This document shows positions 47,301 to 50,300 of a stretch of DNA of 64,000 nt, piece after piece. This stretch comes from Escherichia coli (GTDB taxonomy: Bacteria > Pseudomonadota > Gammaproteobacteria > Enterobacterales > Enterobacteriaceae): the NCBI RefSeq assembly GCF_045037415.1, contig NZ_CP173438.1, one strand, 5' to 3'. Numbering within the stretch: position 1 is the stretch's first letter; each line of letters opens with the position of its first letter. The position numbers were made by a program.

Positions 47301-50300
47301 CGCAGCTGCATGCGGAAGCATATGAATGGGCGAAGAAAATTTCTGAACATCTGCTGCCTCGTACCCGCGCGTATGCGGAGATCTGGCTCGATCAGGAAAA
47401 AGTCGCCACTACTGATGAAGAGCCGATCCTTGGTCAGACCTACCTGCCGCGTAAGTTCAAAACCACGGTAGTGATCCCGCCGCAGAACGATATCGATCTG
47501 CACGCCAACGACATGAACTTCGTGGCGATCGCCGAAAACGGCAAGCTGGTGGGCTTTAACCTGCTGGTGGGCGGTGGGCTTTCCATCGAACACGGCAACA
47601 AGAAAACCTACGCCCGCACGGCGAGTGAGTTTGGCTATCTGCCGCTGGAGCATACGCTGGCGGTGGCGGAAGCCGTCGTGACAACTCAGCGTGACTGGGG
47701 TAACCGAACCGATCGTAAAAATGCCAAAACCAAATACACGCTGGAGCGCGTAGGGGTTGAGACGTTTAAAGCGGAAGTTGAACGTCGCGCGGGGATCAAA
47801 TTCGAGCCGATTCGCCCGTATGAGTTTACCGGACGCGGCGATCGTATTGGCTGGGTTAAGGGCATTGATGATAACTGGCACCTGACGCTGTTTATCGAAA
47901 ATGGTCGAATTCTTGATTATCCGGGGCGCCCGCTGAAAACCGGCTTGCTGGAGATCGCGAAGATCCACAAAGGTGATTTCCGCATTACGGCGAACCAGAA
48001 TCTGATCATCGCCGGCGTGCCGGAAAGCGAGAAAGCGAAGATCGAGAAGATCGCCAAAGAAAGCGGGTTAATGAATGCCGTCACGCCGCAGCGTGAAAAC
48101 TCAATGGCCTGCGTGTCATTCCCGACTTGCCCGCTGGCGATGGCGGAAGCGGAGCGTTTCCTGCCGTCTTTTATCGACAACATCGATAATTTAATGGCGA
48201 AACATGGTGTCAGCGATGAGCATATCGTGATGCGTGTAACAGGCTGCCCGAACGGTTGTGGTCGCGCGATGCTGGCGGAAGTGGGTCTGGTGGGGAAAGC
48301 GCCGGGTCGCTACAACCTGCATCTTGGCGGCAACCGCATTGGGACACGTATCCCACGGATGTATAAAGAAAACATCACCGAGCCGGAAATCCTGGCGTCG
48401 CTTGATGAACTGATAGGGCGCTGGGCGAAAGAGCGCGAAGCGGGTGAAGGCTTCGGCGACTTTACGGTGCGTGCGGGCATCATTCGCCCGGTGCTCGATC
48501 CGGCGCGCGATTTGTGGGATTAACCATCAGCCCGGTCTTGTAGGCCTGATAAGACGTGTGAGCGTTGCATCAGGCAAGGCAAACAGTGAGGAACTTATGT
48601 CCAAACTCGATCTAAACGCCCTGAACGAACTGCCAAAGGTAGACCGGATTCTGGCGCTGGCGGAAACTAACGCCCAACTGGAAAAACTGGACGCTGAAGG
48701 CCGCGTAGCCTGGGCGCTGGATAATCTGCCCGGTGAATATGTACTTTCTTCCAGCTTTGGCATTCAGGCGGCGGTGAGCCTGCATCTGGTGAATCAGATT
48801 CGCCCGGATATTCCAGTGATCCTCACCGATACCGGCTATCTGTTCCCGGAAACCTACCGCTTTATTGACGAGTTAACGGACAAACTCAAGCTCAACCTGA
48901 AAGTGTATCGTGCTACCGAAAGCGCCGCCTGGCAGGAAGCACGCTACGGCAAACTGTGGGAGCAGGGCGTTGAAGGCATTGAAAAGTACAATGACATCAA
49001 CAAAGTCGAACCGATGAACCGGGCGCTGAAAGAACTGAATGCGCAAACCTGGTTTGCTGGCCTGCGCCGTGAACAATCCGGCAGCCGCGCCAATTTACCG
49101 GTGCTGGCAATTCAGCGTGGCGTATTTAAAGTGCTGCCGATTATCGACTGGGATAACCGAACTATTTATCAGTACCTGCAAAAACATGGCCTGAAATATC
49201 ACCCATTATGGGATGAAGGATATTTATCGGTGGGCGATACCCATACAACCCGTAAATGGGAACCCGGCATGGCGGAAGAAGAAACGCGTTTCTTTGGCTT
49301 AAAAAGGGAATGTGGATTACACGAAGGGTAAATATTGCCGGATAAATTAAACGCCTCTGTCAGAAATGATGGAGGCGTTTTTATTTTTTGCGAGCAGCAT
49401 TCCGGCATTTAAAGGTGAACATCGCAGGGAAAATTAACAGGTATAGAATGGCATTGGGTGCTTGAGGCTGTCTGGCGTTAAGCATTCGCAAGGTTCCAGA
49501 TGGACAAAAGCCCCAGGCGATATTTCTATCAACCTGAGGCTCGCGTTCGAACGTAGCAATTCGGATGTTAGTCTCTTCTTTGCAGGGAGGCAAGACATGC
49601 TGACAAAATATGCCCTTGTGGCAATCATCGTACTGTGTTGTACAGTACTGGGATTCACGTTGATGGTAGGCGACTCGTTGTGTGAGTTGAGTATCAGAGA
49701 ACGTGGTATGGAGTTTAAGGCAGTTCTCGCTTACGAATCGAAGAAGTAGCCACCACGCGGGGTAAAACCCCGCGTACTGAATTGTGATGGTTTGGCCTCC
49801 TGCACCCCTTTTTTATACTCTGTTTCTGGTGGCATTGATTTCCTGCAGGCAAGGGAGTAATCATTTCAAACCCATTAAGATGCCTTCGCCAGCTCCTTCA
49901 CCAACGGTAGCATTATCCGCATAACATCACGGCAGCGACGTTCTATTCTTCCAGGAAGTGCCTTATCAATATGCTGTTGATTATCCAGTCTTACGTCATG
50001 CCAGCTATTTCCCGCAGGGAATGCGGCTGTTTTTGCTCGTTGCTGATAACCATCCTTATTGCCAAGATTCCAGTTAGTCGCTTCCACCGAAAGTACAGCA
50101 ATACCGGCTTTGTCGAATATTTCTGCGTCATTACAACACCCGGTGCCTTTCGGATAGTTTTTATTCAAACCTGGATTTGTGGTGGCGGCAATTCCATGGC
50201 TGCGGGCAATTGCCAGCGCCCGGTCGCGCGTTAATTTCCTTACTGCTTCAGGGGTTTTTACACCGCTGTTGAAATACAATTTATCGCCAACAATTAAGTT

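Follow-up and report, generated by a model that had tools for sequence, protein, structure and literature searches.

The CRISPR-I site of Escherichia coli, flanked by cysH on the left and iap on the right, was reportedly first surveyed by Diez-Villasenor et al. in 2010. Exactly this cysH-iap interval was surveyed by Almendros et al. (mBio 2014, PMC3903273), who distinguished arrangements A to I on the basis of the cas-E variant, the leader, IS elements, hok/sok and the intergenic blocks. In their parsimony model, arrangement A, which carries cas-E1 and was found in all phylogroups except B2, is the oldest state, and arrangement B is its deletion derivative. Arrangement B, typical of B2, is a short interval between cysH and iap in which the conserved intergenic blocks and hok/sok are retained and the leader, the eight cas-E genes, the CRISPR2.1 array and any IS are lacking. 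More recently, a 2025 study of uropathogenic strains (PMC12736100) described an iap-cysH interval (its region B) without CRISPR-Cas components in about half, with hok and sokX still adjoining cysH. The strains without CRISPR-Cas were mostly B2, and the ygcE-queE interval (region C) was reported with scrK/scrY/scrA/scrB/scrR instead of an array (PMC12736100).

Here we analysed the corresponding region in a 64-kb stretch of E. coli chromosome, referred to as the window. The cysH-iap interval of the window is very probably the cas-less allele (arrangement B) of the CRISPR-I site, carried by a genome of the ST131/phylogroup B2 type. As in arrangement B, hok/sok is retained, leader, cas genes, array and IS are all absent, and the association is with B2; we found no substantive difference between the two, and the window is likewise an example, without any difference, of the uropathogenic configuration. 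Since that configuration has been described in both PMC3903273 and PMC12736100, the finding is already known: it is correct, and the configuration is an ordinary one.

In the window, cysH and iap are convergent and separated by 543 bp (49332-49874), according to the ORF list and to the RefSeq annotation of the SK1144 record, which is collinear with the window and shows indels upstream. The plus-strand genes cysJ (45012-46811) and cysI (46811-48523) lie upstream of cysH, while cysD, cysN and cysC come after iap. Read from cysH, the gap is made up of the cysH terminator, a hok/sok unit, about 48 bp specific to this allele and 11 bp common to all strains, which lead directly into the iap stop codon (Table 1). 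Other candidate features in the gap were discarded. Two weak Rfam matches, to Spot 42 at the cysH terminator (20.6 against 80 bits) and to naRNA4/REP (21.9 against 59.5 bits), fell far under the respective gathering scores. The mechanical ORFs of the gap, including a minus-strand ORF of 49 aa at 49715-49864, have no RefSeq annotation, and the latter was rejected because indels of 1-2 bp in a T-run among lineages would break its frame.

Table 1. Features of the cysH-iap interval and of the second I-E array site, in window coordinates.
Feature	Position	Strand	Evidence
scrK-scrY-scrA-scrB-scrR sucrose island, ~6.7 kb	26811..33530	-	annotation; limits of K-12 homology
cysH (PAPS reductase), left flank of CRISPR-I site	48597..49331	+	SK1144 RefSeq annotation; translation
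cysH intrinsic terminator: 14-bp stem, 4-nt loop, T-run	49349..49390	+	terminator scan; inverted repeat
Predicted full-length hok mRNA	49456..49816 (about)	+	Rfam sok; MFE fold; ends inferred, unmapped
Candidate Sok antisense RNA: single-stranded 5' tail, hairpin, U-tail	49496..49558	-	fold
12-codon leader ORF, stop overlapping the hok start codon	49565..49603	+	sequence reading; translation
hok CDS, 50 aa	49597..49749	+	RefSeq WP_000956458.1 'Hok/Gef family protein'; Pfam PF01848
hok 3' GC-rich hairpin ACGCGGGGTAAAACCCCGCGT	49755..49775	+	alignment; fold
Junction segment, cas-less allele only	49816..49863	.	genome BLAST; alignments
11 bp abutting the iap stop codon, TTTCAAACCCA, common to cas+ strains; homology restarts	49864..49874	.	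alignments
iap (alkaline phosphatase isozyme conversion aminopeptidase), right flank of CRISPR-I site	49875..50912	-	annotation; ORF list

Every defining component of the E. coli type I-E locus is missing from the window. The I-E repeat (GAGTTCCCCGCGCCAGCGGGGATAAACCG) has no match at three or fewer mismatches on either strand of the whole 64 kb, and in a Hamming scan its best hit showed 10 mismatches out of 29, which is at chance level. The terminal degenerate I-E repeat and the I-F repeat also gave best matches with 10 mismatches in the window, again at chance level. TRF reported no array with a CRISPR-like period in the window, and the repeat search returned only short two-copy chance families within the gap. 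When 16 Cas proteins (the eight of cas-E1 from strain T2 and the eight of cas-E2 from K-12) were compared to the whole window by tblastn, the best E was 0.076 and no match fell inside the gap; the RefSeq record of SK1144 has no cas annotation either. At the junction itself, no remnant of a repeat, spacer, leader, cas fragment or IS was found. With respect to cas+ strains, what is missing is a block of about 10 kb that comprises cas3, cse1, cse2, cas7, cas5, cas6e, cas1, cas2, the leader and the CRISPR2.1 array.

These observations agree with an earlier note on this DNA, which had placed cysH and iap 543 bp apart (with ends at 49331 and 49875, as we also find) and had reported a window devoid of I-E repeats, regularly spaced repeats and cas remnants. 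The gene order that it gave for the K-12 interval is right when compared with the K-12 locus, and the contrary evidence that it named, I-E repeats or cas fragments in 49332-49874, was looked for and not found. Short-read assemblies can collapse CRISPR arrays, and an apparent absence could result from the array and cas genes being collapsed or dropped from the source assembly. However, cas genes are unique sequence that would not collapse, and the same 543-bp gap is present in more than 1000 independent complete genomes, leaving this explanation with a negligible probability.

The earlier note had overlooked two elements of the window, the hok/sok unit in the gap and the second I-E array site (ygcE-queE). 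Judged by homology and modelled structure, the gap holds an intact and complete hok/sok type I toxin-antitoxin locus, whose expression and toxicity are predicted on the same grounds. The Rfam sok family (RF01794) matches over its full length at 49456-49612 with 104.3 bits, against a gathering score of 59. The toxin itself matches Pfam PF01848 (6.3e-10, residues 5-46), with scores below the NCBIfam curated cut-offs for HokA (53 against 89 bits) and for the Hok family (39.5 against 73). In every lineage compared, hok shows more synonymous than non-synonymous codon changes (for example 16 to 9 against Atlantibacter), which points to a toxin gene under protein-level constraint.

At the RNA level, both the MFE and the centroid folds predict pairing of the 5' end of the hok mRNA (49456-49469) with the 3' sequence GGCCUCCUGCACCC at 49794-49808, the fold-back by which full-length hok mRNAs are defined, and the fold energy of 49456-49816 is 3.8 standard deviations below that of shuffles (z = -3.8). 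The hairpin downstream of the coding sequence is conserved in the hok loci of Escherichia, Atlantibacter and Lelliottia. On the minus strand, the candidate Sok RNA, read from 49558 to 49496, is predicted to fold with -23.7 kcal/mol (z = -2.6). A putative promoter for it was picked out by eye, with a -35 element TTGCCT (49593-49588), a 17-nt spacer and a -10 element TAACAT (49570-49565); it is weak, with 8 of 12 consensus matches, and lies under the promoter-scan threshold. The short leader ORF may play a mok-like coupling role, as its position suggests.

The unit thus resembles hok/sok of plasmid R1 and the hok loci of E. coli chromosomes: it encodes a Hok/Gef toxin about 50 aa long, its structured mRNA measures about 360 nt and has a predicted 5'-3' fold-back, and a candidate antisense RNA lies over the leader. 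Unlike that of R1, the locus is chromosomal and its upstream overlapping ORF has just 12 codons; in R1, mok is a long ORF. The difference with K-12 is more marked: hok is intact in the window, whereas K-12 keeps only sokX at this position, the coding sequence having been replaced.

The I-E loci of E. coli, whether cas-E1 (T2, O157) or cas-E2 (K-12), occupy the same site between the same flanking genes, so that the limits of homology can be placed on both sides. The closer of the two is cas-E1, which shares the entire cysH-hok/sok block with the window at 98% identity. Homology to strain T2 runs from cysH through hok up to about 49815-49828, after which T2 presents the stop of an oppositely oriented cas3. 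Homology to K-12, on the other hand, stops exactly at the hok ATG (49599), and the sok part alone is kept. On the iap side, cas+ Escherichia have in common with the window only the 11 bp at 49864-49874, and beyond these they carry the degenerate terminal repeat, the conserved oldest spacer and the array.

Between these limits lies the junction segment of about 48 bp (49816-49863), whose first ~13 bp are weakly alignable to the cas-E1 flank and whose remainder (49829-49863) has no counterpart; its lack of equivalent in the compared cas-E1 and cas-E2 loci is a minor addition to what is known of arrangement B. BLAST located the segment in 1129 of 5426 complete E. coli genomes, once in each and always with hok directly beside iap, and none of the cas+ genomes among the 5426 carries a copy. 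Local alignment to the trailer and the ~10-kb cassettes of T2 and K-12 yielded no significant similarity. Neither did the cas+ loci of other species, as blastn-short over 87 loci returned cas-less Escherichia only. We also considered the segment (GATTTCCTGCAGGCAAGGGAGTAATCA) as a degenerate solitary I-E repeat, and rejected the idea given that its T2/K-12 alignment scores no better than shuffles. Clean removal of the known cassettes could not yield this part of the junction.

The whole cysH-hok-iap junction, at a coverage of at least 80%, is present in 1106 of the 5426 complete E. coli genomes. Carriers of the junction segment include ST131, S88 and O127:H6; we take the last two to be B2 strains, and S88 to be of the ST95 type. 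Over 25 kb (26000-50999), the window is 100% identical to EC958, JJ1886, JJ1887 and other O25b:H4-ST131 genomes. Given this identity and the assignment of ST131 to phylogroup B2 (PMC11251922), the phylogroup of the source strain, which the earlier note had left to be checked, is B2; the Clermont marker genes are located outside the window. We infer vertical inheritance of the allele in ST131 and a single origin.

In the light of these comparisons, the earlier note stands in part. The array and cas genes are indeed absent relative to K-12, but the deletion of a K-12-like locus that the comparison implied is not what the alignments support: K-12 has cas-E2 and no hok coding sequence, and the closer comparator is cas-E1 (T2), which keeps hok. 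Nor is the junction a bare one, as the gap contains the apparently intact hok/sok unit and ~48 bp without counterpart in the cas+ loci examined. Finally, the implied loss is not strain-specific, since about a fifth (~21%) of complete E. coli genomes have the cas-less layout. That E. whittamii and Escherichia sp. E1V33 have it as well is a further small addition to the published description.

Aligning the interval to cas-positive and cas-negative Escherichia, as had been proposed, yielded the breakpoints against T2 and K-12 and, in the cas-less lineages, an orthologous allele. The same layout and the junction segment are shared by E. whittamii, Escherichia sp. E1V33, E. coli E69 and TB06052. 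Their identity to the window is 83-91% for the junction segment, as against 93-98% for iap and 95-97% for the hok unit. The divergent copies in other Escherichia species indicate that the cas-less allele is old and not a product of ST131; it predates the B2 radiation and is also carried by other Escherichia species. The occupied allele is old as well, E. coli and E. albertii being similar at the iap-proximal flank of the array. Presence and absence of the cassette look like a polymorphism of long standing.

A recent deletion in this strain or clone, whether of a K-12-like or of a cas-E1 cassette, and either IS-mediated or through CRISPR repeats, is accordingly very improbable. The junction contains no IS, repeat or cas fragment, and is identical or nearly identical in more than 1100 genomes, among them ST131, the presumably ST95-type S88, O127:H6 and others. 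Other Escherichia species have it too, the junction segment diverging by 9-17%, and the cas-less genomes do not form a single recent clone; we therefore strongly disfavour a recent event. Erosion driven by IS elements does have precedents, such as MB46, with IS421 and IS1 inside the locus, the E. coli locus L010, where 8 repeats, a cas3 fragment and hok are retained, and arrangements D-G of PMC3903273.

The age of the allele leaves two main possibilities, and the absence of a deletion scar means that the sequence fits an ancient loss and a site that never carried the cassette alike. We lean modestly towards the former, in which the cas-less allele would stem from the ancient loss of a cas-E1-type cassette, in line with the published model. 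Against a simple deletion stands the allele-specific segment of ~48 bp, which is not explained from the known cas-E1 or cas-E2 arrangements. That same segment, absent from the cas+ loci examined, suits a replaced target better than a clean deletion. On this second view, cysH-hok/sok-iap would be the ancestral Escherichia state, and B2, E. whittamii and related lineages would never have carried the cassette. The ~10-kb I-E cassette would then be a mobile insert in other lineages, which replaced ~35-48 bp beside iap and spread by recombination in the conserved flanks. We consider this second scenario a tentative one, with a chance somewhat short of even.

In a wider comparison, one genome per species was scanned for iap, and 80 Enterobacteriaceae loci were scored. 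The distance between iap and cysH is 250 bp or less in at least 35 of the 80 representatives, and only 10 of them have, at the site, five or more of the eight types of I-E cas gene; both counts speak for an originally empty site. So do Atlantibacter and Lelliottia, which likewise show cysH-hok/sok-iap without cas, and without the extra junction segment, and the sharing of the allele, with divergence, by several species-level lineages of Escherichia. True scars provide a further argument in the same direction: one or two solitary repeats persist at four cas-less sites of the survey (L018, L020, L034, L051), and L010 retains its array and cas3 fragment. Traces of this kind mark a deletion, and none is present in the window.

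Several points nevertheless weigh against a site that was never occupied. I-E cassettes sit at the same position in E. albertii, Salmonella (S. enterica diarizonae), Citrobacter, Enterobacter, Klebsiella and Raoultella, all among the 10 occupied representatives, and the likeness of the iap-side flank of the array in E. coli and E. albertii speaks for an equally old occupied allele. Moreover, the parsimony model of PMC3903273 derives B from A by deletion, and replacement of the cassette borders after an old deletion may also leave sequence that appears unique. An old excision remains our preferred origin, by a modest margin. If the site had never been occupied, the published direction of events at the locus would be reversed; that this direction (deletion from A) is not proven by sequence is the last of our minor additions.

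The second I-E array site is also modified. In K-12, the ygcE-queE spacer measures 1372 bp and holds the CRISPR-II array, while the corresponding site in the window extends over about 26809-33535. Homology to K-12 ends at 26810, 2 bp past queE, and restarts at 33531, 5 bp before the ygcE stop; the scan of the window found no I-E repeats at this site, where the scr island has taken the place of the entire intergenic region. As the island occupies the CRISPR-II site, the second I-E array is absent too. The island has already been published at this position (PMC11251922; PMC12736100). With the cas operon and both I-E arrays absent, no type I-E adaptive immunity is to be expected from this chromosomal region. 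The configuration accounts for an ST131-type/B2 lineage without type I-E CRISPR immunity in the region, with a toxin-antitoxin module at the first site and scr at the second. It is useful for strain typing and is relevant to the question of why plasmids and prophages are readily carried by B2 extraintestinal pathogens, both points being already in the literature.

A last observation concerns the region downstream of hok. The stretch 49757-49789, that is, the hok 3' hairpin and the next 14 nt, resembles, in the same orientation, the 3' half of the last full repeat of cas+ strains followed by the first 19 nt of their conserved oldest spacer. With one gap, 25 of 33 positions are identical, a score reached by between 1 in 1000 and 1 in 2000 dinucleotide shuffles; the resemblance was noticed post hoc. 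It does not extend beyond the 33 nt and lies apart from the junction. Homology of the whole stretch from the hok 3' region to iap with the array trailer was rejected, as just these 33 nt are significantly similar and they fail to explain the junction. An origin of the oldest conserved spacer in a hok-like locus of a plasmid or phage was likewise discarded, no credible protospacer having been found in the plasmid and phage collections. The similarity may be a chance one between GC-rich palindromes.

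Orthologous hok/sok modules were found between cysH and iap, just downstream of iap, in three Atlantibacter loci (L060, L065 and L068) and in one Lelliottia locus (L063), with Hok proteins that are 82–86% identical, so the presence of hok/sok at this site is not confined to Escherichia. In all four loci, cas genes are absent between cysH and iap.

Other genomes present what look like real deletion scars: one or two solitary copies of the type I-E repeat persist in the cas-less iap–cysH gaps of L018, L020, L034 and L051, which come from Citrobacter, an Enterobacteriaceae MAG and Superficieibacter. 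The window junction, in contrast, is scar-free. Erosion of the CRISPR-cas locus by insertion sequences can be seen in the cas-E1 strain E. coli MB46 (L004), which has two of them in this region (see table).

As a separate observation, the hok 3' hairpin region of the window (49757–49789) resembles positions 23678–23710 of the iap locus of strain T2 (L002), where the counterpart is half of the last I-E repeat plus the conserved oldest spacer of cas-positive strains. The resemblance, spotted post hoc, amounts to 25 of 33 identical positions, a score reached by one in 1000 to one in 2000 shuffles. No protospacer for this spacer was found among plasmids or phages.

At the ygcE–queE site, K-12 has the CRISPR-II (CRISPR2.2/2.3) array, while the window has a sucrose island instead, with no CRISPR repeats remaining at the site. 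Homology to K-12 stops no more than 2–5 bp from the stop codons that flank the island, whose location here is already known for B2/ST131 (PMC11251922).

Locations of additional elements in the window and in MB46
Feature	Sequence	Coordinates	Context	Match
CsrB sRNA gene	window	7677–8036	between syd and yqcC	Rfam RF00018, 383 bits
scrK-scrY-scrA-scrB-scrR sucrose island, 6.7 kb	window	26811–33530	fills ygcE–queE site	
REP-like palindrome	window	48544–48576	between cysI and cysH	
IS421 and IS1	L004	13210–17975	IS421 between hok and cas3; IS1 between cas3 and casA	

The match of the cysI–cysH palindrome to naRNA4 is weak, at 21.9 versus 59.5 bits and far under threshold.

Elsewhere in the window, mazG directly follows relA with a spacing of ~93 bp (20776–20868), and the mazE-mazF toxin-antitoxin pair, which lies between these genes in K-12, is missing from the interval. 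The mazG gene is annotated as frameshifted in the collinear RefSeq record SK1144.
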